From the IMG/VR virus record IMGVR_UViG_2636416136_000011: a stretch of 41,816 bases of DNA; one strand, written 5' to 3'. A program made the translations under genes and the position numbers. This DNA is from a virus (taxonomy: Duplodnaviria; Heunggongvirae; Uroviricota; Caudoviricetes). Of this stretch, positions 1-29,622 are shown piece by piece; position 1 is the stretch's first letter; each line of letters opens with the position of its first letter. The notes beneath the pieces are model-generated. The model made no database searches and had not been told where the DNA came from. It saw only the letters and a program-made list of their open reading frames with translations.

Positions 1-273
1 TACACATATTCACGCTCATTAATACAATCATTTAAAGGAAACAACAAACTCATTGAGGATTATGAAAAAATCCTTATTGGCATGGCAGACAATAACAAAG
101 ATAAAACCATGTATAAGAGATTACATGATGCAAAAATAAATGTAATGGTAGATTATGCTCAAGGGATAAAAAATATTGATGCAGAGCTAAGAGATGCAGT
201 CAATAAGGGATTCGACATTATCGACCAAGAAGTAAAGTCACTACAAATGAAATTAAACAAATTAGCTTCATAG
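1..273 (+). CDS. hypothetical protein, 5'-truncated by the window edge
   Basis: Frame 1 is open from nt 1 to the stop at 271-273; A+T-rich and lysine-rich; no motif recognised; lies outside the invertase end of the prophage. Confidence 0.35.
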   Translation, partial: YTYSRSLIQSFKGNNKLIEDYEKILIGMADNNKDKTMYKRLHDAKINVMVDYAQGIKNIDAELRDAVNKGFDIIDQEVKSLQMKLNKLAS

Positions 274-353
274 AATGCTCCACTCCCTGTTCAATATTTT
301 TACAAGCTTATCAGCCAGCCGTGGCACGTTCTTGCATACGACGTGCTACGGTT

Positions 354-908
354 TCATTTATCTCCGACCGGAAACCTCTTATACAAAGTCGATATGCCAA
401 CATCATAGATGATCGCCACCTTCTGGCGAGGAACTCCTGATGCAATTAATCGTCCGGCCTGTGCCCATTGTTCTGGTGTAAGTTTGGGACGTCGTCCACC
501 AATTCGTCCCTGTGCGCGAGCAGCTTCCAGGCCAGCTTTTGTTCGTTCAACAATCAGTTCTCGTTCCATTTCAGCCAGGGCACCCATCACATGAAAGAAA
601 AAACGCCCCATCGGTGTGCTGGTATCAATAGCATCCGTCAAGCTGCGAAAATTAACGCCACGTTCGCGCAACTCCTCAACCAGAATGACCAGATGCCGCA
701 TACTACGCCCCAGCCGATCCAGCTTCCAGACAACCAGAGTGTCACCTGCCGATAATGTCCTGAGCAGTTTTTTCAGTCCCGGCCTTTCGGACTTTGTACC
801 GCTTATTTTGTCTTCAAAAATCAGCTCGCATCCTGCACAGTTCAGCGCATTACGTTGTAGATCTGTGTTCTGGTCATTTGTTGACACACGTACATAGCCA
901 ATAAGCAT
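354..908 (-). CDS. Serine-recombinase DNA invertase (Gin/Pin/Hin/Cin family)
   Basis: N-terminus MLIGYVRVSTNDQ with catalytic Ser, VVWKLDRLGRS and GRIGGRRPKL motifs and a C-terminal HTH; start taken at the internal Met (908) rather than the upstream in-frame Met at 944. Confidence 0.9.
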   Translation of the reverse strand: MLIGYVRVSTNDQNTDLQRNALNCAGCELIFEDKISGTKSERPGLKKLLRTLSAGDTLVVWKLDRLGRSMRHLVILVEELRERGVNFRSLTDAIDTSTPMGRFFFHVMGALAEMERELIVERTKAGLEAARAQGRIGGRRPKLTPEQWAQAGRLIASGVPRQKVAIIYDVGISTLYKRFPVGDK

Positions 909-934
909 GGTAGATCTCCCTGACAAAAGCAGGA

Positions 935-1327
935 ATGATGCCATTTGCTCGTTATTTCTGCATTTTCATAAACGTTGGTTTGGGAGAGGCGGCAAAAAGG
1001 AATGTGGGGACAGGGACGAATCAGATACCTGATATGGGTAGTTTTATGCTTTCTGCTTCAGTTCCTGGATATCAAAAATTGCCATCCGGTTTAATTATTC
1101 AATGGGGGCCAATTGATGTTCCGCTGACGTCTCAGGACACAGTAACCTATTTTCCGATTGCATTTCCGAACAGATGTCTGCGGGTATTTGCGACTCAGGA
1201 TTACACTCCCGGCAGTGCAAATGTTGGCTATATAGCTTGTGCCGGTTATAACCAGGACCCGGTGAAATTTATTTCCAGAGCAGGCGTACCCGGTATCGGT
1301 GCTTCATTTTTCGCATTAGGGTGTTAA
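935..1327 (+). CDS. Silent alternative tail-fibre C-terminal (receptor-binding) segment, expressed only after inversion
   Basis: Plus-strand ORF reading outward from the crossover site, with no start context of its own; the encoded GLGE at the site matches GLGEG at the crossover in the expressed fibre. Confidence 0.55.
963..988. repeat. hix/gix-like invertase crossover site (invertase-proximal), TTTTCATAAACGTTGGTTTGGGAGAG
   Basis: Its reverse complement CTCTCCCAAACCAACGTTTATGAAAA matches the site at 2803..2828 in inverted orientation, including a 13-bp identical run; internal AAACC/GGTTT dyad as in hix sites. Confidence 0.7.
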
Positions 1328-1353
1328 TTTCTTTTAACTTTATGGAGTGAAAA

Positions 1354-1794
1354 ATGAATTACATATATTCCGCGACTACAAACTCTTTCTATCCCTTGGA
1401 GATGAAAGAGGATTACACGCAAGCTGACTCATGGCCAGATGATGCTGTTGAAGTTGATGAGCAAGTGTATATTGAGTTTTCCGGATTACCGCCGGAAGGA
1501 AAAATCCGTATCGCTGGAGAAAATGGTTTTCCTGCATGGTCTGAAATTCCACCACCAACGCATGAGGAACAGATTGCTGCAGCCGAACTGGAAAAGCAGC
1601 AATTGATTAATCAGGCCAACGATTATATGAACAGTAAACAATGGCCTGGTAAAGCGGCTATTGGTCGTCTGAAAGGTGAGGAACTGGCGCAATATAATTT
1701 GTGGCTGGATTACCTGGACGCACTGGAAATGGTCGATACTTCCAGTGCGCCAGATATTGAATGGCCTACGCCTCCGTCAGTTCAGGCCAGATGA
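1354..1794 (+). CDS. Tail fibre assembly protein (Tfa/U'-like) paired with the silent fibre tip
   Basis: About 146 aa, directly downstream of the alternative fibre tip and converging on the other Tfa gene (29-bp overlap), as in Mu U/U'. Confidence 0.65.
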   Translation: MNYIYSATTNSFYPLEMKEDYTQADSWPDDAVEVDEQVYIEFSGLPPEGKIRIAGENGFPAWSEIPPPTHEEQIAAAELEKQQLINQANDYMNSKQWPGKAAIGRLKGEELAQYNLWLDYLDALEMVDTSSAPDIEWPTPPSVQAR

Positions 1795-2359
1795 CATCCG
1801 GCGCGGTGCTGGTATCTGTTGCCGTCACCGCGTCAATGTAATCCAGCACAGCGTTAAGCCGGGTTGTTTCTGCCTGCGTCAGTTTCCGCCCGGCCTGTAA
1901 TTTCAGCTGAATCAGACTAATGGAAGCCATTGCTGCATCAATCAGCGACTGGCGCTGTGCTTCTGCCGCGCCTACTGCGGCGCTATGCTGTGCCTCGGTA
2001 TCCGTCACCCATTTCTCACCATCCCATTTATCGTATGGCGTTAACGGTGAAAGCGTGACATAACCGTCTTTGATGGCACCGATATAATCCACTGTAACAG
2101 CTGCACCATTTTCTGTTGAGTAAACAGTCTCATTGCGATGGTCTTCTTCATGGCTCCATCCCTTACCCGTAAATACTGCCACTTTTCCCGGAATGTTTTC
2201 GCCCGGGTCAATACCAGTGGAACAGGCGGGCATACTTACGCCAGTATTAATATATTCATCAGACCAGCCCGTATACTCAGTTGTTTCAGCATCATAATAA
2301 AAACAACGCATATCGCCCGGCACTGTAGCCAGCCCATTTTCATCAAAAACAGGTTTCAT
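1766..2359 (-). CDS. Tail fibre assembly protein (Tfa/U-like) paired with the expressed fibre
   Basis: 197 aa, immediately downstream of the tail fibre gene with start/stop overlap; position and size typical of a fibre chaperone. Confidence 0.65.
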   Translation of the reverse strand: MKPVFDENGLATVPGDMRCFYYDAETTEYTGWSDEYINTGVSMPACSTGIDPGENIPGKVAVFTGKGWSHEEDHRNETVYSTENGAAVTVDYIGAIKDGYVTLSPLTPYDKWDGEKWVTDTEAQHSAAVGAAEAQRQSLIDAAMASISLIQLKLQAGRKLTQAETTRLNAVLDYIDAVTATDTSTAPDVIWPELTEA

Positions 2360-3171
2360 TATTTAGCCCTCACCAGAAAGTTAAATGCAATATTTCGCGG
2401 TCTGACAGCAACAAAATTCACACCATCACCCACAGAGTTACTGGTGAAATTAAATCGTGAAAATCCTGGCTGATTTCCGGCGATGCCATCATGAAAGTCA
2501 ATTGCGTGTCCCGCACCTCCGCCTATATTCCCGGCAAACTGAGAAAAGTTTGTAGCTTCCTGCCAGCTTAATAATTCGCGACCACCATCTGCACCTCGCC
2601 CGTCATCCCAGATACGAATGAAATCACCGCGGGCTTCAGGTAATACCAGCGAAGGAAACACTTTCGCCAGCACAGGGTAATCAGTGGCAGAAAATTTCGC
2701 CCCGTTGAACTTCAAAAACACCATACCGGACCAGCTGTCGATGACAGAATTTGGCATTGCGGCGGACGGCCAGAAGAACGGAACGCCAATAGCTGGAGCA
2801 CCTTCTCCCAAACCAAGGTTTTCGAGAGCCGTTTTCACCGTGCCATCCGATTTGATATCGCCAAACGGATTCTTGCGGCTCAGGTATTCAACAGCAAACC
2901 CCGATCCCAGCAATTCAACAAAACCGGGCAGATCACCATTATCAAGCACATCCCGTTGCGTTTTGTCACTTACAAACTGGGCCAGAGCTGCAGCAATAAA
3001 GCTGGCCTGCCGAATAACCTTATTGACTTGCGCACTGGATGCTTTCCCTGCTGTAAATCCGGATAAAAGCGCAGGCAACGCTTCCCATTCCTCCTGCGAC
3101 ATAACATTGGCATTTTTACCCGTTGCGAATGCTTTAAAGTCATTTTTTGCCATCAGAGTAATACTCCCCAT
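2359..3171 (-). CDS. Tail fibre protein (constant N-terminus plus invertible C-terminal receptor-binding part)
   Basis: C-terminal collar-like motif [29 protein letters not shown]; a hix-like site lies inside the gene. Confidence 0.75.
2803..2828. repeat. hix/gix-like invertase crossover site (inside the tail fibre gene), TTCTCCCAAACCAAGGTTTTCGAGAG
   Basis: 20 of 26 positions match hixL as I recall it (TTCTTGAAAACCAAGGTTTTTGATAA); inverted copy at 963..988; central AA dinucleotide at 2815-2816. Confidence 0.7.
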
Positions 3172-3833
3172 GCCCCTACATCAAAACCACTGATGAATTC
3201 GTTATCCATATCAAAACCAAAAAATTTTGAACCTTCCGATGGGGTTTCCACCGAAGGTGTTTCAATGCCACCCGCCCACACCCCGGCGGCTTTTACTGTG
3301 AGATATCCCTGTTTAATTGCAGCAATTAACTCACGCGATACATCTGAAATATCAGTATCAGGAAAGACCCAGACCGATATCGTCATGTCCTGGTTATCGA
3401 CTATCTGCATTCGCAGCCCGGATCCTGCTGTTGCCGCGTCAAGAATTACCGGAAGCGAATCATTCCGTCCGTCCCAGTTATTAATCGCAATCTTCGCTTT
3501 AAGGATGACACGATAAGTTTCATCGCTGAGGTACATGTATCCGGAATCAGGATCGTATGGCCCCTGCCATACACCCTGATCATATCCAAGCCCGTCGGTA
3601 TCCCAGCTGAAATAGACACCTGAGATAGGCTGGCTGACAACACGGCTACGTCCGATCCACAATCCAAGAATGTCAAGTTGCACACCAACCGCGGAGTCAA
3701 TATCAAATGCAGTAATCAACCCTCTGGTGGCCGCCGCAACATCAATAAGCGGCCGGGTCATCAGATCAACATGCGCAAGAAATTTAGGTTTGGTGGCGTG
3801 GTAGTTCGTGATTAGTTCGGTGTATTTGCTCAT
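3153..3833 (-). CDS. Tail/baseplate protein (gpI/gp48-like position)
   Basis: 226 aa between the baseplate J-like gene and the tail fibre; overlapping coupled starts. Confidence 0.4.
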
Positions 3834-5029
3834 GACTCCACCGTTATAACGATATTTTCCGGGGTACAGGACGCAGATTCGTTGTATCTGATATCAATGT
3901 TTGATGACGACAAAGCCCCCGGGGATTTCCCAATCGTCAGTTCCTGAATATCGTAATAGCGTGCATTCCCGCCACTCACCACGCCAAGATTCGCCGGTGA
4001 GTAAATGCGACTTAAAAGGACCGAATCACCAATCATCAGACTATTGATATAGTCGGAAATAGCCTGCTGGATCTGCTGCCCTATCTGTGAGGTATAACCC
4101 GTAAAAACTTTTAATTTAATCCGGGCATAAACAGGCACATCACTGGAACGCGAGAATTTGATTACATGGGGATTGCCGTATTTATCCGGAACCGTAACGG
4201 ATGTTGTACCGTGAGTGGCTGTCCCCTGGCCTTTATTTCCTCTGATAGCCTGAGCAATATCCGTCACATCACCGCCATCCACAATTACAGCAACAGAGTG
4301 TGGCGGTAACCCGTTACCGTCCTCTGAACCAGTATCGTTTTCATAGAGTTTGTGGCGGGTTACACCGGTAACATTAGAAACAGCACCATCCAGTGCTTCA
4401 AATGGGGTTATTGATGGCAACGCAACACTTTGCGACTGACGGATACGTAACTCCGCATCAGTTTCTGCCGGAGTGCCTACAGTAGCTGCAGCAGGATTGG
4501 TTACCGAAACCCAGCCACGGGTTGGCGTATTAATTTCAGTGATAGTTCCAGCCAGCGCCGCCACTGCACCACTGACGGAACATGTTGCGGTCGCCATCAC
4601 TGTACCATCCACGCCGACCACCACTGAAGCAGGCAAACGCCATATCACATTATTACCATCTTTCACGCTGCCATTAATGATGGTTGTTCCGGCAGTTCCT
4701 GTAAGAAGCAAATCAACCGTAGAGTTCGTCGCGCCTTTACGTGAAATACCATTTATTTTCACGTTACTGGTCAGTGCAGCCCCATAGCCGGTTGCCGGTG
4801 AAAAACAGTTGTAGACAGTTATCGCAGTATTATTGGCATCATGAATCGCCAGCGCCATCAGAGCCACCATCTGGCCGTCTTTGCTGTCCGGTTCGAGGTA
4901 GGCATCACTGCCATAAATCTGCTGAAAATAGCTAATCAGGGTGCTGAGTATCGTCTGATAATCAGGCGCACTGATCCCCTCCGCGGTTACCTTTGCAGAT
5001 AAACCGAGAGAATCAAGGTTCAGAGCCAT
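3830..5029 (-). CDS. Baseplate J-like protein
   Basis: 399 aa; position after the gpW-like gene; threonine/glycine/valine-rich β-type sequence typical of baseplate wedge proteins. Confidence 0.55.
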   Translation of the reverse strand: MALNLDSLGLSAKVTAEGISAPDYQTILSTLISYFQQIYGSDAYLEPDSKDGQMVALMALAIHDANNTAITVYNCFSPATGYGAALTSNVKINGISRKGATNSTVDLLLTGTAGTTIINGSVKDGNNVIWRLPASVVVGVDGTVMATATCSVSGAVAALAGTITEINTPTRGWVSVTNPAAATVGTPAETDAELRIRQSQSVALPSITPFEALDGAVSNVTGVTRHKLYENDTGSEDGNGLPPHSVAVIVDGGDVTDIAQAIRGNKGQGTATHGTTSVTVPDKYGNPHVIKFSRSSDVPVYARIKLKVFTGYTSQIGQQIQQAISDYINSLMIGDSVLLSRIYSPANLGVVSGGNARYYDIQELTIGKSPGALSSSNIDIRYNESASCTPENIVITVES

Positions 5030-6193: not shown

Positions 6194-6589
6194 TCATGAA
6201 ACTCTAGCAGACTTTAGCTGTTCCCAGCGCTCAAAATAGAGTTCAGCAGCCTCGATTGCATCCTGTCCCATCTCTTTCGAAACAGTCACATTCGTCAGAT
6301 CATAGTCAGCTTCATTTCTAGCATCCCGCCACTGGCGAAGTACGAAAGCTAGGGATTTCAGTGTATTTGTCGGGTATGGCTCTGATTTGCACTCTGAGGG
6401 CGTTGACATATAACCCACAGTATTTTTGTGATGCTCATGGGTAAAATGCGGTATGGCAGTAAGTGAGCTAATAGACTCATGTAACATACTGTAATACGCC
6501 CTTGAGATAGCGCTTCGAAATCCACTCTCAATATTTTCAGACAGACATAATCGAGCGGTATCGAGAATCTGATTGCTAGTTACCGACAT
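6194..6589 (-). CDS. HEPN-like domain protein (candidate toxin/defence effector), moron gene 2
   Basis: 131 aa; motifs RAYYSMLHE (R-x6-H) and RDARNEADYD (R-x-x-A-D-Y) resemble classical HEPN signatures; A+T-rich; 14-bp overlap with the upstream gene. Confidence 0.5.
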   Translation of the reverse strand: MSVTSNQILDTARLCLSENIESGFRSAISRAYYSMLHESISSLTAIPHFTHEHHKNTVGYMSTPSECKSEPYPTNTLKSLAFVLRQWRDARNEADYDLTNVTVSKEMGQDAIEAAELYFERWEQLKSARVS

Positions 6590-7349
6590 GGTAGCTCACC
6601 CCCGTATGCAACTGACGCGGAGAGGTAAATCTAGCTAACAGGGAACAATCATCCAGTTTAGATTCAGCGCAGACTCTATCAGCCAAGTCGAAGTTCATTT
6701 TGGCAATAGTTTTAGGCTCAAGATTTTTAATATCAACAACATAGCAACCGCTTCCACTAAGCTGAACGAAACCTGTCGTAGCCTTGTATTCACTTAGCAA
6801 GCCCCAGATTATGGATGCTAAGGTCTGGAACTGTTCCTTCGAGCACTGTGTGGCGCTATAGAAATTATCCATTTCTGCAAGGAGTTCTTCTTTGTGCTTC
6901 ATAGCATTACTCCTGCCTTCTGATTCAGAAAGAAGCTTAATGTGCTCTTCCATATAAAATTTTAACTGTTCACGCTCGCCGCAACGGTACGCCCAACTGT
7001 ATGCGTTGTGACTAAAGAGTTTTGTCCGATACTTCTTTGCCAGCGGGACATAGACATCCTTGAGTTCATTATAGCTAAATGTATTAATTAAAATGTGATG
7101 ATAGTGCATTGCCAACGTTACATCGTTTACTTCTAGGCTTATCCTGAGATAACGTAACGCGCTTTCAATCTTTCCGGTTATTGCATCCAGATAAGATAGT
7201 GCAATGTTGGTAGCAGGCGTTGGAGAGACAGAAAGTTCCTCTCGAATTTTCTTTTCAGTGAAGGGATCTAAACTTTCCCTATCCAATAGAAGCGCATTGA
7301 ATTGTTCAATATATTTTTGCGCTTTTTCTAATGGGATGCCTGCCGCCAT
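6576..7349 (-). CDS. Hypothetical protein, moron gene 1 (partner of the HEPN-like protein)
   Basis: 257 aa, no motif recognised; A+T-rich; separated from the upstream gene by a 95-bp gap. Confidence 0.5.
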   Translation of the reverse strand: MAAGIPLEKAQKYIEQFNALLLDRESLDPFTEKKIREELSVSPTPATNIALSYLDAITGKIESALRYLRISLEVNDVTLAMHYHHILINTFSYNELKDVYVPLAKKYRTKLFSHNAYSWAYRCGEREQLKFYMEEHIKLLSESEGRSNAMKHKEELLAEMDNFYSATQCSKEQFQTLASIIWGLLSEYKATTGFVQLSGSGCYVVDIKNLEPKTIAKMNFDLADRVCAESKLDDCSLLARFTSPRQLHTGVSYHVGN

Positions 7350-9146: not shown

Positions 9147-9733
9147 TAGCCGCCCCCCAGTAATGACGCCACGTTACCCGTGATGCTTTTCAGCAGTGAA
9201 GTATCTGGAGGCTTTGTGGTTTTGTTGCCGCTGTTCTGTACCGCCGACGTGCTGGCCCCTTCCTTCATGTTGGTTTTATCCGCGACGGTAATCTGCTGTG
9301 TCCGGGAGATAATGACCTCCCTCAGGGTGAGGACAGCGGACAGGACGTTTTCGGTTGTCTTGTCCGTCGTCACTTCCAGCGCCCGGATCAACATGTTGCT
9401 GTACAGCCGTTTACCGGTTACCACATCGAAGGGGATACGGCTTTCCTGCAGACCCAGTAGCTCCTGATACGTCTGCTGAGGACTCAGGCCGAGCAGGCTG
9501 GTAGCCGTCAGGTTACTGGCAAAATCCAGCAATGCGCCGCCACCGGCGAAACCAACCTCCATCACCACTTCTGACGGTTTTTTATAGGCATGATCAGCGA
9601 CAGCGGCCCCGACCTCTACCGGATGCTCTGTTATTTCAAGCATATCTGTATGCTTCTCTGAAATAACAACACTGGGAACAATCATTCCTATTTTTCTGCT
9701 CTGCTGATGAAAAAGTGTAGAGAGAATATCCAC
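9146..9733 (-). CDS. Tail protein
   Basis: 195 aa, immediately downstream of the tape measure gene, coupled. Confidence 0.4.
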   Translation of the reverse strand: MDILSTLFHQQSRKIGMIVPSVVISEKHTDMLEITEHPVEVGAAVADHAYKKPSEVVMEVGFAGGGALLDFASNLTATSLLGLSPQQTYQELLGLQESRIPFDVVTGKRLYSNMLIRALEVTTDKTTENVLSAVLTLREVIISRTQQITVADKTNMKEGASTSAVQNSGNKTTKPPDTSLLKSITGNVASLLGGG

Positions 9734-11718
9734 TAACCCACCCTCACCTGATTACTTCGCATGACCTGAGCATTTGCAGACTGTTGCCGACGTGCAACCT
9801 CATTACCGACAGCGTGCGGATCTCCGCCACCGTAAATGTGGTAGGTATTTTGCTGGTTAACCTCTGTCACTTTGCCACTAATTCCCGCCACGGCAGCCTT
9901 ATTAATCAGCTCTCGAGAATAGATATTTCTTCCATTCTCATGCTGGATAATGCTGCTCATCAATGCTGACATGGTTTGCGGATCACTCATATTCAGGGCA
10001 GCCCGGGGATCCACTCCCAGTCGTTGCGATACAGCCCTGATATACGCTGTTGTGTTGTTATTATCAGACGCAGGTGCCCAGGTAGAGATAATTTTCTCCA
10101 CACTGTTTATTCCCCGTCCGGCGTACAGCATTAACTGACGAGCAAGAGCCCGTAATCCATCAAAGGCAGTTTCAAATCTGGCAAATCGCCCGCCCGGGCG
10201 TTCAAGAGAAGCCCCTGCCTGACCAGCAAAATTAAGGTTTCCCGGATTGTTATTCCGTTCTCCTCGTTTCGTAGCCTGTGCATATTGTTCCGGCTCAGCA
10301 CCTGGAATATCTGACTGAATATTTGCGCCTTTTACGGTATGAGGATTACGACCAAAATCGGTATCAATGCCAAGCCAGCGCAATGAATCTCCAATATTTT
10401 GTTTCGTGTAATCCCAGGATGACTTCGCACTGGCACCAATATTTTCGCGATCAGAGTACAAATACGCAGCATAAGCCATCCAGCCTTTTAACCACGGCGG
10501 GACCGGCAAACCTGATATTTTCCCGAAAGCCCCCAGAACCCTGGATACCCAGACACCCGCGATGAATGTACCAAGGATTTCCAGTGCATTTTGCCAGCCG
10601 CCAACACCATCTTTTAGTTCCAGAAGGTGATCACGAAGCCAGGTGATCGCATCCTTCGCTTTATCTATTGCCGGTTGCCATTTTTCCCAGTCGATAAGAC
10701 TGTTACCGCCTTCTTTCCATGTTTTGTAGTCTTCCCACAAGAGACCGAGAGCCACGATCAGACCGGTAATCAGCCCTATAGGTGACATCCAGAAAGTAGA
10801 GTTAAGTATCCGCATGGCGACAACCAGACCGCCGATAACCTCTATCAGGGTTTTCGTTTCGGCATCCAGTTTCCCCCACCACTCGATGATATCTCCGACA
10901 CCATCGACTATCCGAAATGCTACCCGCCCGACTATCTCACCCAGCCAGAGGATCCCCTTTATGACCTTTGTGATGGTGACTTCAATTTTGGGAAAATTTT
11001 CAATTATCTTTTTGCGCAGGTTATCAATCTGCCCCGCCAGTCCGTCCGCAAGATTCGATCCGATTTTGTCCCGCGCCATCCTGGCCATTTCACCGAGCGA
11101 TTTCAGCGAGGTCATAAACCGGTTTGACGATAAGGCAGCCTGATCGGCATTAAATCCGATCGCTTTCACCATTTCTGAATACTGAGCGCTGAACTGCCCC
11201 ACTCCGCGACGCATAGCCATCAGGGTATTTTCGTCAATGCCCAGCATCTGCGCATACTGGTTAGCCCGGTAATACGGCATGCTGCTGAGTTTCTGTCCAA
11301 CGCCCGTAAAGATAGCAGCCATGTCACGCATGTTACCGCTGGCATCACGGGTCTGTACGCCCAGGCGATTCAGAAAGCCTTCTGCTCCGGGATTGTTACG
11401 AATAAACCGGGAGAGGCTTTCCAGAGAAGATCGCGCAGCGTCCACACTGCCGCCAACCTGCGAAACCGCATAGCCAATAGACTGAATTCCCTGGACCGTC
11501 GCGCCGGTGCGCTGTGACGCCCAGTAAAGATTATCCAGGCCGGAGGCGATCTTAGCCGTGAAGGCCACCACGGACAGCGCAGCCCCTTCAACAGCCAGCC
11601 CCATTTTGATGACATTTGCAGTTGTACCGGCGAGGACAGAACCGAACTTTTTCGCTCCTGCATCATCCACACTGAAGCCAAGCGAGACGAGGAAATCTTT
11701 AATAGTTTCAGCGTTCAT
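9733..11718 (-). CDS. Tail tape measure protein
   Basis: About 660 aa with hydrophobic central segments; start set at MNAETIKDF (ATG 11718) with upstream GGAGAGAGG. Confidence 0.7.
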   Translation of the reverse strand: MNAETIKDFLVSLGFSVDDAGAKKFGSVLAGTTANVIKMGLAVEGAALSVVAFTAKIASGLDNLYWASQRTGATVQGIQSIGYAVSQVGGSVDAARSSLESLSRFIRNNPGAEGFLNRLGVQTRDASGNMRDMAAIFTGVGQKLSSMPYYRANQYAQMLGIDENTLMAMRRGVGQFSAQYSEMVKAIGFNADQAALSSNRFMTSLKSLGEMARMARDKIGSNLADGLAGQIDNLRKKIIENFPKIEVTITKVIKGILWLGEIVGRVAFRIVDGVGDIIEWWGKLDAETKTLIEVIGGLVVAMRILNSTFWMSPIGLITGLIVALGLLWEDYKTWKEGGNSLIDWEKWQPAIDKAKDAITWLRDHLLELKDGVGGWQNALEILGTFIAGVWVSRVLGAFGKISGLPVPPWLKGWMAYAAYLYSDRENIGASAKSSWDYTKQNIGDSLRWLGIDTDFGRNPHTVKGANIQSDIPGAEPEQYAQATKRGERNNNPGNLNFAGQAGASLERPGGRFARFETAFDGLRALARQLMLYAGRGINSVEKIISTWAPASDNNNTTAYIRAVSQRLGVDPRAALNMSDPQTMSALMSSIIQHENGRNIYSRELINKAAVAGISGKVTEVNQQNTYHIYGGGDPHAVGNEVARRQQSANAQVMRSNQVRVG

Positions 11719-11953
11719 TATCCTCTCTCCATTTCTCAATGCGTCGCTGGTTATCCGCTTTTACCGCCAGATGGTCATTCAAGAGAGCAATGTCATACAA
11801 ATCGACAGAGCCATCTTTAAGTGCTGTATAAGGAATTAACCCGGCGTCAACCGGATTGAGAAGGTAGGACAGCCCGTCCGGCAGGCTGTTAAACGTCAGC
11901 CCTGTTGCAGGCTCTGCGTCGTGCTGGTAAGGGGTGTAGGCAAAAAATTTCCC
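11708..11953 (-). other. -1 programmed frameshift extension of the tail assembly chaperone (G/GT-type), slippery heptamer G GGA AAT at 11947..11953
   Basis: The -1 frame is open with no Met from the slippery site across the whole 156-bp gap and stops at TGA 11708-11710, overlapping the tape measure start. Confidence 0.5.
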
Positions 11954-24875: not shown

Positions 24876-25217
24876 TTATCTTACCTTGATGCCTGATGCC
24901 GTCAGATGTTTACGACAGTCCTGAATACCTTCGTTATAACCCGCATCGTAGAAGCTATCCGGCTTTGCCTTCAGCGCAGGAAGCGTAACGCTGGTAGCTC
25001 TTCGTTCGGCCAGAACACCTGCCTGAAAGAGTGTCCACATCAACTGAACTGCTGAATCACAGTAAGTAACATCTTCACTGTACAATTCTCGTTCAATCCT
25101 GATGCCAAGTTGAGCCTTCATTGATGCGCTAATATTACCTTTGACCTGCAACGACAGGTCTGGGTACCTCTGTTCCATGAAGCTTTCAAATCTGTTGCGA
25201 ACGCTGATCAGAGCCAT
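24876..25217 (-). CDS. Hypothetical protein between Q and the lysis cassette
   Basis: 113 aa, no motif recognised; 31 bp downstream of Q. Confidence 0.5.
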   Translation of the reverse strand: MALISVRNRFESFMEQRYPDLSLQVKGNISASMKAQLGIRIERELYSEDVTYCDSAVQLMWTLFQAGVLAERRATSVTLPALKAKPDSFYDAGYNEGIQDCRKHLTASGIKVR

Positions 25218-25248
25218 CTGGTTCCCTTACGTGATTGATTGCTGGATA

Positions 25249-25671
25249 TTATGCCGCCGAGCAGCTCCTACGCAAAGTCCTGATAGCCTGAGGCTTTGAC
25301 TGAACCGACTGATCCATTTCGAGCACCACATCCAGCATGGCTAAGCAACCGTCAATAAATCCCTCTGCCGCCTGAAGCCTCTTCAGAACGTGGGTGTGAG
25401 ATACGCCGAGCTTCTCACCCATCGCCCGCACGGGCATGGCCTGGACGTAATGCCACTCAAGGAGCGTGCACAGATACGGATCTTTTTTCTTCAGGCAGCT
25501 CATAGCGGAGTTGATGATAAGACCGTCATTGTCACTGCATTTCAGCCTTCCAGACTGCGTCGCGGGTAGCAGATTCTTAAACCCGGCTGCAACAGGAGGA
25601 AAGTAGACACTACCACCTTCACTCGCTGCCCAGCCACCCCAGCGCTCTAAAACCTGTTGAATATTACGCAT
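25249..25671 (-). CDS. Q-like late-gene antitermination protein
   Basis: 140 aa with HTH-like segment MGEKLGVSHTHVLKRL; directly upstream of the late leader and lysis genes. Confidence 0.55.
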   Translation of the reverse strand: MRNIQQVLERWGGWAASEGGSVYFPPVAAGFKNLLPATQSGRLKCSDNDGLIINSAMSCLKKKDPYLCTLLEWHYVQAMPVRAMGEKLGVSHTHVLKRLQAAEGFIDGCLAMLDVVLEMDQSVQSKPQAIRTLRRSCSAA

Positions 25672-25800
25672 AGCTCTGACCTCTACGTTTTGCTACGAAA
25701 AAATTTTCTGAGAACCACGTTTGTTTATCCGTGGGTGTGGATAACGCAGTTCCGATTCGCTTATTACACGCTGTTATGTGCAAAAAATTCCTTGTTCGGC

Positions 25801-25981
25801 CTGTACCAACCTGTACCCACCTGTACCAGCTCTTTTCAAACCTTTTCCCCAAGCGACTTATATATATATATGGGGTTCTTAGTAATTAGGTTGGTACAGA
25901 TGGTACAGTTGGTACTGGCCTTTAAATTCAATTAGTTAAAATGTACCAACCTCTATTTTGAGGTTGGTACAGGTTGGGACA
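25801..25981. repeat. Iteron-like array of CTGTACC/GGTACAG motifs (candidate replication origin or regulator-binding array)
   Basis: Three tandem 10-bp units at 25801..25830, (TA)6 at about 25859..25870, three inverted units at 25889..25918, a perfect 12-bp inverted repeat TGTACCAACCTC-TATTTT-GAGGTTGGTACA at 25942..25971, and a degenerate copy at 25972..25981. Confidence 0.6.
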
Positions 25982-28145
25982 CCGCCTCAAAAATTCGAGT
26001 CATTTTCCCCCCAATTCGCCTTTGGGCACGCTTATACCCGCAATTTTGCAAAACATTACTAATTCGCATTTCTTCGCGTTTTCCGATGCGGTCAGGATTT
26101 AGCCCAATCGCATCACGCAAAACATCACTTGCGCGTAAAAATTCGCAATTTCGCGGAAGTTCATTAGTCATCAGGTCTGGCGTGTCGAGCCATTTCTCTA
26201 CCGTTTCAAGCCAAGCATCCTTGATGGTGTACTGTTCATGGACACTCGCTGCCAGTTGTTCAGCCTCACGGAACTGGATACCCCCCAGACGCTGAAACAC
26301 CTCACGAGCCTCAGCCCAAAGTAAAAGGAGATCTCTTTTTATCGCTTTCACGTCGACTTTCGACACTTCCACGGGGAGCCAGCGACGGTTACCAGTCTTG
26401 TCCGCAAGGAATTCGTCCTCATTGGTGGTACCAACGAACACCAGGCGACGAGGAAACTGGGTGGCGAACTCCCGGTATTTCGGGATCCAGTTTTCGTGAG
26501 TACGCGTCACAAACGCTTTGATTGACTCCAGCTCTTTGGTATTAAGTCCGCGCAGTTCACCAATCTCTGCCACCAGCCGACCACGCATTTTTCGAGCGAG
26601 ATCATCGTCTTTTTCGGCAAAAGAGATTTCAGTAAAAAACGCAGGATCAGGGCTCAGTGCCTCCACTCCGGAAGACTTACCGCAGCCCTGCGGACCAACG
26701 AGGATCGGCACCATATCCGCTTTGATGCCTGGCTCCAGTACTCGCCCCGCCAACGCGGTCCACATGTACATAGACACCGCACGGGTATAAGGCGTGTCGG
26801 CGGTACCGAAGTGCGTATGGTAGAAACATTCGATGCGCGGCACGCCATCCCACTCCAGTCCGTTCAGCCAAGTGATCGCTGAATCGAATGGTTGTTCATC
26901 GGCTGCAAGTAACACCACATCGCGAATAAGTTCACGACCAACAGGTTTAAATCCCCGCTTTTCCATCGTGATGCGCAGGCGCGCATAATCCGCATCGGTG
27001 AATGCCCGCCATTGTCCGGATCCTGCAGGGGCAAACATGATTTCGTCGCGGAACTGGTCAAAGCGAATATCGATGTCCACAAAATCAGGGCGTACTACTG
27101 CTTTGGCTGCGTTGCTGATTGTTGCCTCGATACGCCCCCATTTATCACGCTCGAAAGCAGGCAGCGGTAAAGGTTCCGCCACTTCGGTGCTGGTCAGATC
27201 TTCGAAATCGTCGTTGCGGATCCCGATGGCATTAAGGAAATCTCCGTCATCACGATGCGCACAACTGGCATGCAGGCATTTAAAATGCCCCTGCTCAAAG
27301 CCCGCGGTTCCCGCAGGAAAATAAACTGTGCTTGTTGGATCGCCCCCGCTACTGTGGCCGTCTTCAAACGGACAGCGGATATATCGTTCACCATTTGCGC
27401 CATCCAGCAGCGTCCAGCCATTGGCATCAAGATATTCAGCTGTATCATCCGTCGCGCCGGGCGTGAATGCTGATCGGTCGCGCATCTTCGTGTTGCCCGC
27501 TTCGGTGGTTACCGACACAGGGAGTTGTTCAGCCAGGCGCTGCCACAGCGTTTCAAGCTGCTCACCAGTAATAGCCGGAGGTTCATCCGGCAAACCGCCG
27601 TCCCATTCAATACGCGCGCCGCTGCTGTGCGTACCGCAGGCAACGAACTGCTGCCCGTTCGCCAGCAACTCGATAATGCCCATATCCCCCGCCAGGCGAT
27701 GGATACGCTTACGGAAATCACCATCAACGGCCAGCAGATACAGACACTTATTACTGTTTGCTCGCCAGCGTCGCGGCGGCAACTCACCCAGAAGTTGCAC
27801 AAGCGTTTTGCGAATATCTGCCTGAATGTCTTCATCTTCGCTATCACAGTCCAGCGCCAGCCAGCCATGGCCTGTACGCACGCAGATGCCATAATCCGGT
27901 TCATTCGACCAGCGGGCAAAATCATGCTCAGTAACAACATGCCCGGTCCATTGAGCAATACCGGTGACCTGGCGGTCCCGGTTATAGCGACTCGGCGTCT
28001 TACCCAACGCTTTCAGTTTACTATCAGGGGATATGGTCGCACTGGGGTTACATACAACTGGGAGAAGATGATCAGTTCTCCCCAATACCAGGTCGAAATG
28101 AAACCACTCATCAGGCGTAGCTCCCCATGGTTTGCTATCGGACAT
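25953..28145 (-). CDS. Primase-helicase (prim-pol domain, zinc ribbon, P4-alpha/VirE-like P-loop NTPase)
   Basis: LALDCDSED and CGTHSSG prim-pol-like motifs, Cys/His cluster (CPFEDGH...CLHASCAH), Walker A VGPQGCGKSS and Walker B-like RLVFVGTTNE. Confidence 0.75.
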   Translation of the reverse strand: MSDSKPWGATPDEWFHFDLVLGRTDHLLPVVCNPSATISPDSKLKALGKTPSRYNRDRQVTGIAQWTGHVVTEHDFARWSNEPDYGICVRTGHGWLALDCDSEDEDIQADIRKTLVQLLGELPPRRWRANSNKCLYLLAVDGDFRKRIHRLAGDMGIIELLANGQQFVACGTHSSGARIEWDGGLPDEPPAITGEQLETLWQRLAEQLPVSVTTEAGNTKMRDRSAFTPGATDDTAEYLDANGWTLLDGANGERYIRCPFEDGHSSGGDPTSTVYFPAGTAGFEQGHFKCLHASCAHRDDGDFLNAIGIRNDDFEDLTSTEVAEPLPLPAFERDKWGRIEATISNAAKAVVRPDFVDIDIRFDQFRDEIMFAPAGSGQWRAFTDADYARLRITMEKRGFKPVGRELIRDVVLLAADEQPFDSAITWLNGLEWDGVPRIECFYHTHFGTADTPYTRAVSMYMWTALAGRVLEPGIKADMVPILVGPQGCGKSSGVEALSPDPAFFTEISFAEKDDDLARKMRGRLVAEIGELRGLNTKELESIKAFVTRTHENWIPKYREFATQFPRRLVFVGTTNEDEFLADKTGNRRWLPVEVSKVDVKAIKRDLLLLWAEAREVFQRLGGIQFREAEQLAASVHEQYTIKDAWLETVEKWLDTPDLMTNELPRNCEFLRASDVLRDAIGLNPDRIGKREEMRISNVLQNCGYKRAQRRIGGKMTRIFEAVSQPVPTSK

Positions 28146-28148
28146 GGG

Positions 28149-28361
28149 TTAAGCCTTTTTATCGTTTTGTGAGCCATACAACAGCCAATTAGGGTCGCAA
28201 TCCAATGCTATAGACATTTCAAGAAGATAACGTGGCCGAGCAATAACACCACTTTCAATTCTGTTTATTGCCTGCTGGCTCACTCCTGTGAGCTCAGCCA
28301 ACGTAACTTGCGTCATTTTGAGTTCTTTACGTCGTTCTTTTACTCGGGTCGCTAAGGTCAT
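28149..28361 (-). CDS. Cro-like HTH regulator
   Basis: HTH motif MTQVTLAELTGVSQQAINRIE; start set at ATG 28361 with GAGGTG upstream (the listed ORF begins at an upstream TTG); divergent from the repressor gene. Confidence 0.6.
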   Translation of the reverse strand: MTLATRVKERRKELKMTQVTLAELTGVSQQAINRIESGVIARPRYLLEMSIALDCDPNWLLYGSQNDKKA

Positions 28362-28388
28362 TGCTTTCACCTCATACAATTTTAGTGG

Positions 28389-28441
28389 TATTTAGCAACA
28401 ACAAACGAGGTTTGTCAAATACAACAAAAATTGTTTTTAAT
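28389..28441. promoter_or_regulatory. Genetic switch: back-to-back promoters with a 15-bp palindromic operator
   Basis: Minus strand TTGACA(28413..28418)-18 bp-TAAATA(28389..28394) toward cro; plus strand TTGTCA(28412..28417)-18 bp-TTTAAT(28436..28441) toward the repressor; palindrome ACAAACGAGGTTTGT at 28401..28415. Confidence 0.45.
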
Positions 28442-28481
28442 GTGGGGATACACATTAATACAACCCAGAAGGACTAATCCC

Positions 28482-29105
28482 ATGTCTCTCGCAGCCCGTT
28501 TTAAAGCACGTCGTTTGGAATTAGGAATGACTCAAGTGGAAGTAGCGAATTCTGCAGGGGTTAGCCAACAATCCATAGAATCCATCGAAAGTGGACGAAC
28601 CAGAAAGCCACGCAATCTTCTGGATCTGGCTAAGGCCTTGAAATGTAGCCCAGACTGGCTACTGAACGGTAAAAATATTATGCCTCTCGCGGAGATAAGT
28701 ACCAGACGCATACCTATATTAAGTTACGTTCAGGCAGGAGAGCTTACAGAAGCAAGAGACATAACAGATCTGACAGGGGAATTTGAATATATTTTGGCAG
28801 ACTCTGACATTCCAGAAACATGCTTCGCATTACGTATCGATGGCGACAGCATGCAACCAGAGTTTAAAGAAGGAGACATTGTTATCATCGATCCTGATCT
28901 ATGTCCTGCACCAGGGGAGTTTGTTGTCGCCAAAAACGACGGTCACGAAGCTACATTTAAAAAATACCGTCCATTAGGAATCGGCATCGACGACTTTGAA
29001 TTAATCCCCCTAAATCCTGATTACCCTATTTTTCGTAGTGCAGATATGAACTTACAGATCATAGGTGTAATGATCGAACACCGTATTTACCGCCGTAAAC
29101 GTTAG
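28482..29105 (+). CDS. CI-like repressor, HTH plus S24 LexA-type autopeptidase domain
   Basis: N-terminal HTH (MTQVEVANSAGVSQQSIESIE), Ala-Gly at VQAGE, catalytic Ser in GDSMQPEF and downstream Lys; start at MSLAARF with AGAAGGA upstream. Confidence 0.85.
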   Translation: MSLAARFKARRLELGMTQVEVANSAGVSQQSIESIESGRTRKPRNLLDLAKALKCSPDWLLNGKNIMPLAEISTRRIPILSYVQAGELTEARDITDLTGEFEYILADSDIPETCFALRIDGDSMQPEFKEGDIVIIDPDLCPAPGEFVVAKNDGHEATFKKYRPLGIGIDDFELIPLNPDYPIFRSADMNLQIIGVMIEHRIYRRKR

Positions 29106-29124
29106 TATTCCCACCGTAAATATC

Positions 29125-29144
29125 GGGAGGCGTAACAGCCTCCC
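29125..29144 (+). terminator. Stem-loop after the repressor gene (weak terminator candidate)
   Basis: GGGAGGC-GTAACA-GCCTCCC 20 bp after the stop; the trailing tract is only moderately T-rich. Confidence 0.35.
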
Positions 29145-29427
29145 TTACCCCATTTGTAAAGTCTTACAAATTAAATTCACTTAAATATCAATAAAGTAGT
29201 ATTCACACCCCACAAAATACCACATTTGTGGTTTACATAATACAACTCAAATTGTATCTTTAGCCACAAGTCGAACGGCGCGACTCTAAACCATGCGTCG
29301 GGACCGTGGCGGGACAGGATGTCGGCAATACGGGTCAGTAAGTTCCCTTTGGGGTGCGGCGAAGCACTGTCTACTGATACAAGTCGAAGCCGCCGAACCA
29401 CCAAAGTGAACTGAATGAGGAAACGGC

Positions 29428-29622
29428 GTGAAAACGTATAAACCGCTCAAAGGTGAATGCCCTGCTTGCCAAACACAGCTTCTGACACCAAAGCCAAAAC
29501 GATACCAAATCAACGAATGTTATGAGCACTGCCCTGGATGTGGTGCTTTCCTGCATACCATTGCAACGCACTGGCGTGTCCGCTTCAACCTTGTGGTACC
29601 ACGTACGCACAATACCAACTGA
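29428..29622 (+). CDS. Small zinc-ribbon protein
   Basis: 64 aa with CPAC...CPGC pairs; starts with GTG; followed by a terminator. Confidence 0.45.
   Translation: MKTYKPLKGECPACQTQLLTPKPKRYQINECYEHCPGCGAFLHTIATHWRVRFNLVVPRTHNTN

Follow-up and report, generated by a model that had tools for sequence, protein, structure and literature searches.

The window analysed here, by which we mean the whole 41,816-nt stretch of DNA, appears to be a temperate myovirus prophage of E. coli, complete and ~41 kb long, integrated between yfhH and yfhL, and an inversion cassette of the e14 type sits at its tail-fibre end. The window was 99.5% identical to the prophage of the RIVM strain, with a divergent immunity region, and on these grounds we set aside an identity of the window with that strain. 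Searches of all 41,816 nt for Rfam families and tRNA genes returned no matches, nor did Pfam and PADLOC searches of the neighbouring unannotated ORFs. The features of the cassette are as follows:

354..908, minus strand: pin, serine DNA invertase, 184 aa (Resolvase, E 9e-52; HTH_7, E 6e-12)
823..890: probable recombinational enhancer in the 5' end of pin, homologue of the P7 cin enhancer
935..1327, plus strand: alternative fibre tip ORF (Gp53-like_C, E 1e-18; a RefSeq CDS)
963..988: pin-proximal crossover site, pix-type, 26 bp, central TT at 975..976, 25/26 against e14
975..2816: invertible segment holding two tips and two tfa genes, 1,840 bp between site centres
1354..1794, plus strand: tfa paired with the gp53-like tip, 146 aa (Caudo_TAP, E 2e-38; 62% to K-12 TfaP)
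1766..2359, minus strand: tfa paired with the present fibre tip, 197 aa (Caudo_TAP, E 1e-26; 64% to K-12 TfaE)
2359..3153, minus strand: tail-fibre gene of the present orientation, 264 aa (PHROG tail-fibre families, E 4e-77 and 5e-66)
2803..2828: fibre-gene crossover site, pix-type, 26 bp, central AA at 2815..2816, 26/26 against e14

An initial sequence-only reading of this DNA had placed an invertase at 354..908, and this assignment was borne out by the Resolvase and HTH_7 domains and by 96% identity to PinE of the E. coli K-12 e14 element; the RefSeq name for the gene is likewise pinE. The protein has the architecture of the invertase family, an N-terminal catalytic domain with a serine nucleophile followed by a C-terminal helix-turn-helix. 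It is 78% identical to Mu Gin and aligned over its full length with the Gin structures 3UJ3 (PDB search, E 2e-93) and 4M6F, an alignment in which the Ser9 motif VRVSTNDQ was conserved. In Hin, contacts to Fis and the enhancer are made by K47, R48 and K51 together with Q151, R154 and L155 (PMC3798978). Alignment to 1HCR showed the latter three to be conserved as Q150, R153 and L154 of Pin, and the helix-B positions are occupied by the basic residues K46, K47 and R50 if a one-residue offset from Hin is applied. Transcription of the gene runs outward from the segment. A promoter and terminator scan of 250..3300 gave counts no higher than shuffles predict and placed no element close to pin or the leader ORF; within 908-990 no candidate sigma-70-like promoter of pin exceeded the threshold.

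Positions 823..890 aligned column by column with the annotated cin enhancer of P7 (+19..+86 of cin). Two Fis-like 15-mers with cores of the G-N13-C type lie within this stretch, at 872..886 (TGTCAACAAATGACC) and 824..838 (GTGCAGGATGCGAGC); a distance of 48 bp separates their centres, and from the proximal one to the crossover at 975/976 it is ~96 bp; both cores are kept in pinE, gin and cin. This geometry agrees with that published for the hin enhancer, in which Fis sites stand at either end of ~65 bp, ~100 bp from hix (PMC3798978). The stretch 823..890 is probably a recombinational enhancer, and the two 15-mers are its candidate Fis sites. Synonymous-site conservation of pin against gin and cin was no more than slightly raised over the first 60 nt of pin, and so does not by itself demonstrate a DNA-level constraint over the enhancer region.

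The two inverted 26-bp sites that had been proposed at 963..988 (TTTTCATAAACG-TT-GGTTTGGGAGAG) and 2803..2828 (TTCTCCCAAACC-AA-GGTTTTCGAGAG) proved to be close matches to the experimentally defined pix sites of K-12 e14; the first agreed at 25 of 26 positions with the site beside pinE and the second at all 26 with the site inside stfP. They also matched gix and cix at 17-20 of 26 positions and share the consensus of these sites. The inner half-sites (970-987 against 2804-2821) form an inverted repeat that is identical at 17 of 18 positions, and when they are aligned each site has an AA core. When the 18-nt site pattern was sought across the 41.8 kb with at most three mismatches, it occurred in only these two places, against a chance expectation of 0.03 from shuffled sequences; none of 100 shuffles reached two occurrences. 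As the sequence-only reading had it, one site lies inside the expressed fibre gene at the junction of its constant and variable parts: 2803..2828 encodes, in frame, the junction ...ENLGLGE..., and the crossover point is resolved only to the shared 13 nt (TTGGTTTGGGAGA). The earlier estimate of roughly 1.85 kb for the segment was a fair one, the distance being 1,840 bp from centre to centre and 1,852 bp between the repeat ends.

The fibre gene of the present orientation closes the baseplate operon as its last gene, and consists of a constant part (2817..3153, ~112 aa) and a variable tip (2359..2814, 151 aa). Its start had been placed at 3171, which is simply the start of the longest ORF; the likely start is 3153, the one used by RefSeq, which is coupled to the upstream stop codon. 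The present tip is 51% identical to e14 StfE and 93% identical to the mEp213 side tail fibre; in a PDB sequence search the T4 gp37 tip came up at a marginal E 0.013, and in a lax Pfam search Collar scored 14.9 bits, under the cut-off of 24. The second tip, 116 aa long and gp53-like, is encoded by 977..1327, preceded by a 14-codon leader with its own ATG (935..976), and the GLGE codons after the leader belong to the tip. This tip is 49% identical to K-12 StfP and gave weak PDB hits to AP22 gp53 and the foot domains of R-pyocin fibres. The whole ORF 935..1327 is the counterpart of e14 StfE2. Its position as a plus-strand fibre tip was confirmed by the Gp53-like_C match, but the description of it as silent was an assumption, since StfE2 of e14 is reported to be made, active and functional (PMC12529663). 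Among the PDB and sequence matches of either tip, no close fibre of known receptor was found.

Each tip has its own tfa gene, as had been supposed, and both genes match Caudo_TAP; the minus-strand tfa shares nucleotide 2359 of its start with the fibre stop codon. The two genes converge with the 29-nt overlap previously noted, although the likening of this overlap to Mu did not stand: U and U' of Mu are 28 nt apart with no overlap, and the overlap is a trait of e14, where tfaP and tfaE overlap by the same 29 nt.

The resemblance to the e14 P segment extends, beyond the invertase and the sites, to the gene order (tip-tfa-tfa-tip-pin, with pin pointing away from the segment), to the junction peptide, and to the two kinds of tip, one of collar/StfE type and one of gp53/StfP type. 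The cassette is nonetheless an e14-type cassette in another phage and not e14 itself, because of its location at yfhH/yfhL, its different baseplate module, and tips whose identity to StfP and StfE is 49-51%. The e14 element is defective and lies at icd, whereas the window looks like a complete myovirus and has DUF2612 and baseplate-J genes; the N-terminal ~90 aa of its fibre are unrelated to StfP, its tips are other alleles, its Tfa proteins differ in their N-terminal halves (62-64% identity overall), and its orientation is the one that in K-12 is the 'inverted' state.

The cassette works like the Mu G segment but is not a G segment. Both use the same mechanism, keep a constant part (Sc in Mu) outside and two variable tips (Sv) with two convergent assembly genes inside, and have the invertase gene adjoining the segment, pointing away from it and carrying an enhancer, a probable one in the window, in its 5' end; however, the gix sites match the window sites at just 18 of 26 positions and have a GA core, the G segment is ~3 kb, and no meaningful resemblance links S/S' and U/U' to the window proteins. 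The C segment of P1/P7 resembles the cassette in its invertase (Cin, 81% identical), in its cix sites (17-20/26 depending on the strand, with an AA/TT core) and in the annotated P7 enhancer that aligns with 823..890. In contrast, cin points toward its segment with its 3' end abutting cixL, and the C segment is ~4 kb, with much longer fibres that have no detectable relation to those of the window. With Hin and the H segment of Salmonella the cassette shares the invertase family, 26-bp sites and the Fis-contact residues, and it has a probable counterpart of the Fis-bound enhancer that lies ~100 bp from the nearest site in that system (PMC3798978). Hin flips a promoter for flagellin genes, whereas the window segment has no promoter and switches a coding fusion.

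The segment was flipped in silico between the site centres and the result was sought in public E. coli genomes. The flipped form was recovered as one unbroken piece spanning both junctions, at 99.9-100% identity, in six genomes (Ecol_542, F11, RIVM_C036204, RIVM_C040753 and two BH100 substrains), and the form as it stands in the window was found in RIVM_C029670, RIVM_C040348, HG994850, HG994851 and BH100N; exact junctions were present in at least 11 independent complete assemblies. The sister isolates RIVM_C029670 and RIVM_C036204 were 100% identical over 39,013 and 987 nt with the segment alone inverted, and BH100 and BH100N, substrains of one strain, carried it in opposite orientations. The case against a switch that a single fixed orientation would make therefore does not arise, since near-identical prophages occur in both states, and the sister assemblies lead us to infer that switching takes place within one population. 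The fibre predicted for the flipped form, whose reading frame continues through the junction, is 229 aa, the length of the RefSeq CDS at that place in the flipped genomes; these genomes and this CDS bear out the earlier proposal that inversion swaps the tip together with its assembly chaperone. Raw counts gave 156 genomes with the junction of the window and 17 with the flipped junction, numbers that are not an orientation ratio because the partner tips vary among relatives and pin is truncated in some of them.

Together these data make us highly confident that the locus is a functioning DNA-inversion switch of the Pin/Gin type between two tail-fibre tips in an E. coli prophage. In the mechanism we propose, Pin dimers would bind the two 26-bp pix sites, and host Fis, bound to the enhancer in the 5' end of pin, would assemble with Pin into an invertasome; cleavage, presumably at the central AA/TT, and rotation would then turn round the 1,840 bp between the site centres. 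Transcription from the late baseplate operon would cover the constant 5' part of the fibre gene, and because this part lies outside the segment each orientation is expected to join the same N-terminal part of ~117 aa (...ENLGLGE) to one of two unrelated C-terminal tips. The present orientation would yield the 264-aa fibre with its StfE/lambda-Stf-like tip, and the flipped orientation the 229-aa fibre with a gp53/R-pyocin-foot-like tip, the matching tail-fibre assembly gene being placed directly downstream in each case. As the pairings of tip and assembly gene alternate, a lysogen population would release virions of two receptor specificities, a change of host range that we infer. The e14 P segment itself inverts experimentally (PMC4272514; PMC12529663).

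The cassette could conceivably belong to a network instead of being a switch complete in itself. In one sister lineage of this prophage pin is truncated, and yet some of its genomes, identical to one another over flanks of 1.5 kb and 2.3 kb, hold the segment in opposite orientations, which suggests that it is flipped in trans by invertases of other prophages. If such flipping in trans were joined to expression of ORF 935..1327, with its product blocking the adsorption of unrelated phages, orientation would set both a phase-variable defence state of the lysogen and the host range of the virion; that both parts hold is, in our judgement, unlikely. Another reading would have the cassette work for the host as well, or chiefly for it, the ORF being made in the lysogen in the present orientation and blocking adsorption of other phages, so that the switch would be a phase-variable defence and not just a host-range device. 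The ORF is indeed built like e14 StfE2, with a similar leader followed by a Gp53-like_C tip, it is open in both orientations and is a RefSeq CDS, and over-production of StfE2 is reported to lower T2 adsorption (PMC12529663). However, with a tip just 49% identical to that of StfP, the activity of StfE2 is not transferable by homology; the scan of 250..3300 gave no promoter-like site reading into the ORF, and its Shine-Dalgarno spacing is very short, with AGGA 0-3 nt from the ATGs. Both differences between its leader and that of K-12 are non-synonymous, which fits conservation of pin promoter or 5'UTR DNA over conservation of coding, although little weight can be placed on just two substitutions. 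The prophage, moreover, looks complete and not cryptic, so that the classical virion role suffices, and we consider a host-serving function quite improbable.

The pin of the sister lineage is truncated after ~89 aa, so cassette decay does occur among relatives of this prophage, and the orientation differences could in principle be old fixed states or assembly errors left by a switch that has lost inversion. In the window, however, pin is full length with its catalytic serine and the other examined residues intact, and both crossover sites are intact; prophages identical over 40 kb that differ by inversion alone, substrains of BH100 in opposite orientations, and exact junctions in that many independent complete assemblies make such a fossil very improbable. 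Efficient recombination by RecA needs a length far above 18 nt, and the near-perfect inverted repeat, the one feature that would favour general recombination in place of Pin, falls far short of this. The repeat moreover coincides with pix sites adjoining an intact dedicated invertase and its candidate enhancer, and in e14 the loss of pinE, or of both pinE and pinQ, reportedly leaves the segment fixed in one orientation (PMC12529663), which leaves a RecA-made inversion scarcely credible.

The phenomenon is already known, the enzyme and sites being nearly those of e14, and the locus carries little weight as a discovery; its value lies in annotation. Tail-fibre switching by Gin, Cin and Pin has been textbook matter since the 1980s. 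The 264-aa and 229-aa fibres are alternative products of one gene, and the CDSs annotated across assemblies as 'hypothetical protein', 'gp53-like' and 'incomplete phage tail protein' are orientation artefacts of one locus, so that differences between isolates at the fibre locus are not to be counted as phylogenetic signal. The locus is also a clean natural case of modular transfer, in which the cassette has passed from one phage backbone to another that is unrelated to it.

Listing and reading the open reading frames of window positions 1..5000 gave the following gene layout at the left end.

Genes of the invertible cassette and its neighbours
354..908, minus strand: pin invertase ORF, 184 aa if MLIGY... 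is the start, with Resolvase and HTH_7 domains
935..1327, plus strand: gp53-like tip ORF, with a Gp53-like_C match
1354..1794, plus strand: tail-fibre assembly (tfa) gene
1766..2359, minus strand: tfa gene
End at 2359, likelier start at 3153, minus strand: fibre gene, last in order after the baseplate genes
3153..3833, minus strand: DUF2612 gene, upstream of the fibre gene on the same strand
3830..5029, minus strand: baseplate J gene, with more genes past it

The ORF listing, domain matches and a repeat finder reproduced every coordinate of the sequence-only reading except the fibre start, which it had placed at the longest-ORF position, 3171; the ATG at 3153, which RefSeq uses and which shares bases with the stop codon upstream, is more likely.

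The repeat finder returned an inverted repeat, matching at 17 of 18 positions, at 970-987 and 2804-2821. The 26-mers around it were compared with sites taken from K-12 e14, Mu and P7 sequences.

Crossover sites
963..988, pin-proximal: TTTTCATAAACG-TT-GGTTTGGGAGAG; 25/26 with the e14 site beside pinE
2803..2828, fibre-internal: TTCTCCCAAACC-AA-GGTTTTCGAGAG; 26/26 with the e14 site inside stfP, 18/26 with Mu gix and 17-20/26, by strand, with P7 cix

The pattern TTCTC..AAACC-NN-GGTTT fits all the sites compared, and the 18-nt site pattern, allowing up to 3 mismatches, occurs at only 2 places in 41.8 kb, the two window sites listed here (0.03 expected from shuffles). When the inner halves are aligned, both window sites have the core AA, so that the chromosome reads TT and AA; the sites thereby have the inverted configuration, predicting inversion and not deletion. 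Because the inner half-sites are identical, genome data resolve the crossover position to within the shared TTGGTTTGGGAGA and no further; the central dinucleotide was assumed to be the crossover point, by analogy with the invertase family.

The flipped form was built as the product of crossover between the site centres, with 975..2816 inverted, and sought in 5,426 complete E. coli genomes, six of which (Ecol_542, F11, RIVM_C036204, RIVM_C040753, BH100 MG2017 and BH100 MG2014) contain it unbroken across 3,601 nt with 99.9-100% identity. Five genomes (RIVM_C029670, RIVM_C040348, HG994850, HG994851 and BH100N) contain the window orientation, again with 99.9-100% identity; taken together, the two lists place both orientations within the RIVM series, at one chromosomal coordinate, and among BH100 substrains. 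Between RIVM_C029670 and RIVM_C036204, flanks of 39,013 nt and 987 nt are 100% identical and a 1,852-nt interval alone is inverted. The predicted flipped fibre has 229 aa, of which the first 117-118 are those of the 264-aa form and the remainder the gp53-like tip; the RefSeq CDS at the fibre position in flipped genomes is of exactly this length. The sequence-only reading had proposed a Gin/Pin-type tail-fibre switch with two orientations, and had named a single orientation with unconserved sites as the outcome against it; both orientations exist in public genomes and the sites are conserved. The switch is real and was correctly interpreted: the cassette is a functional instance of the classical system. 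That system was already known and the gene already annotated pinE; experiments have shown that the homologous e14 segment inverts, and genome surveys have picked up its inversion too (PMC4272514; PMC12529663).

The window junction was counted in 156 genomes and this flipped junction in 17, raw counts that are unusable as a switching ratio, since a sister lineage with a truncated pin is found in both orientations. In that lineage (loci from NZ_CP195459.1 and NZ_AP022003.1, with 1195..1461 and 1523..3356 homologous to window 354..2821), pin is cut off after ~89 aa and lacks the DNA-binding domain. Strains 22AR0747 and WP3-W18-ESBL-08 nevertheless carry the segment in opposite orientations between 100% identical flanks of 1,542 and 2,299 nt, which suggests that it was flipped in trans by another Pin-family invertase; alternatively, the inversion may be old.

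The window invertase is 96% identical to K-12 e14 PinE and 78% to Mu Gin; Gin crystal structures align with it end to end, the catalytic Ser9 motif is intact, and a relative's invertase gene, at the very end of its prophage, is named pinE in RefSeq. The cassette is arranged as in e14: its genes come in the same order, pin points away from the segment and the tfa genes overlap by 29 nt. The likeness to the Mu G segment claimed from sequence extends to the convergent layout only, as Mu U and U' do not overlap but lie 28 nt apart. In the fibre gene, homology to e14 starts ~27 codons upstream of the crossover; the other ~90 aa, at the N-terminus, show no relation to e14, nor does the baseplate module, and each tip is a distinct allele (49-51% identity). 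By these comparisons the cassette is an e14-type module in another phage.

Positions +19..+86 of cin carry the enhancer annotation in the P7 record, and the equivalent pin columns are window 823..890. This interval holds two Fis-like 15-mers that are conserved in pinE, gin and cin, TGTCAACAAATGACC (872..886) and GTGCAGGATGCGAGC (824..838). They are centred 48 bp from each other, and ~96 bp separates the proximal one from the crossover at 975/976. The geometry matches that of the hin enhancer, a ~65-bp element with a Fis site at either end, ~100 bp from hixL (PMC3798978). Q150, R153 and L154 of pin pair with Hin Q151, R154 and L155 in an alignment of the Hin DNA-binding domain, and the basic residues K46, K47 and R50 occupy helix-B positions, assigned by a one-residue offset from Hin; the residues named as invertase-specific contacts in PMC3798978 are thus conserved. 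Fis would be predicted to bind at 823..890, over which the synonymous-site profile gave only a weak signal.

In e14, inversion of the P segment, which PinQ and PinR from other prophages are reported to flip as well, is reported to create StfE2, and over-produced StfE2 to block T2 adsorption (PMC12529663, 2025). ORF 935..1327, with its own ATG and a leader running into the GLGE of the tip, is built like StfE2, and the window orientation is the counterpart of the inverted, StfE2-making e14 state. The ORF might therefore act like StfE2 rather than being silent, a reading compatible with the switch but held to be minor because its tip is just 49% identical to StfP, a promoter scan found no promoter-like site reading into it, its ribosome-binding spacing is poor and its prophage, unlike e14, is not cryptic.

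Several complete E. coli chromosomes match the window region at 100% or near-100% identity; the annotation of one, NZ_CP134718, identifies the window as an entire prophage of ~41 kb between yfhH and yfhL. Besides an integrase and a LexA-family (S24) repressor-like protein, it encodes replication, Q antiterminator, lysis, terminase, head, contractile-tail, baseplate and fibre functions, then the terminal pinE. It looks complete, as the tape-measure/lytic-transglycosylase gene (9733..11739, minus strand) is a single intact 668-aa ORF; RefSeq gives this gene as two pseudogene fragments in 99.5%-identical RIVM prophages. The window is not the RIVM strain itself: its identity to that strain's prophage is 99.5%, and the immunity regions diverge. 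The immunity/early region at ~25,200..29,600 (Q antiterminator to repressor) is ~92% identical and rearranged relative to the RIVM prophage, amid sequence 99.5-99.97% identical elsewhere, which indicates that the immunity module was swapped.

Between the tail spike and baseplate genes lie overlapping ORFs at 6194..6589 (minus strand, 131 aa, absent from the annotation of the RefSeq relative) and 6576..7349 (minus strand, 257 aa); they matched PHROGs of unknown function alone, with no Pfam or PADLOC match, and may be a moron, an insert of extra cargo genes. Past pin, on the side facing chromosomal yfhH, the prophage ends in a 215-aa hypothetical gene (3327..3974 of extracted locus L001), whose 3' end is window 1..273 (plus strand); Pfam and PADLOC gave no family for this gene, which may also be cargo. 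Positions 1..718 of ON470579.1 ('Escherichia phage vB_EcoM-606R2') contain host yfhH, so this record is apparently a prophage prediction and not a packaged genome, and is unsuitable as evidence of virion formation by this phage family.

In the present orientation the fibre gene carries a 151-aa tip with 93-97% identity to the ends of side tail fibres in mEp213 and certain E. coli prophage records, ~41% to HK97 Stf and 51% to e14 StfE; its similarity to the Collar domain and to the tip of T4 gp37 is marginal. The other (116 aa), beyond its Gp53-like_C match, is weakly like AP22 gp53 and R-type pyocin fibre foot domains. Database matches of the tips assigned a receptor to neither; the two are unrelated, which would fit two receptor specificities. 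The gp53-like tip (977..1240) has 96% DNA identity to sequence at ~1.41 Mb in K-12 MG1655-type genomes, presumed from the coordinate alone to lie in the Rac prophage, and 98% protein identity to a 'YfdL' tail-fibre fragment in vB_EcoM-720R4. Judging by these matches, tip modules circulate among unrelated prophages.
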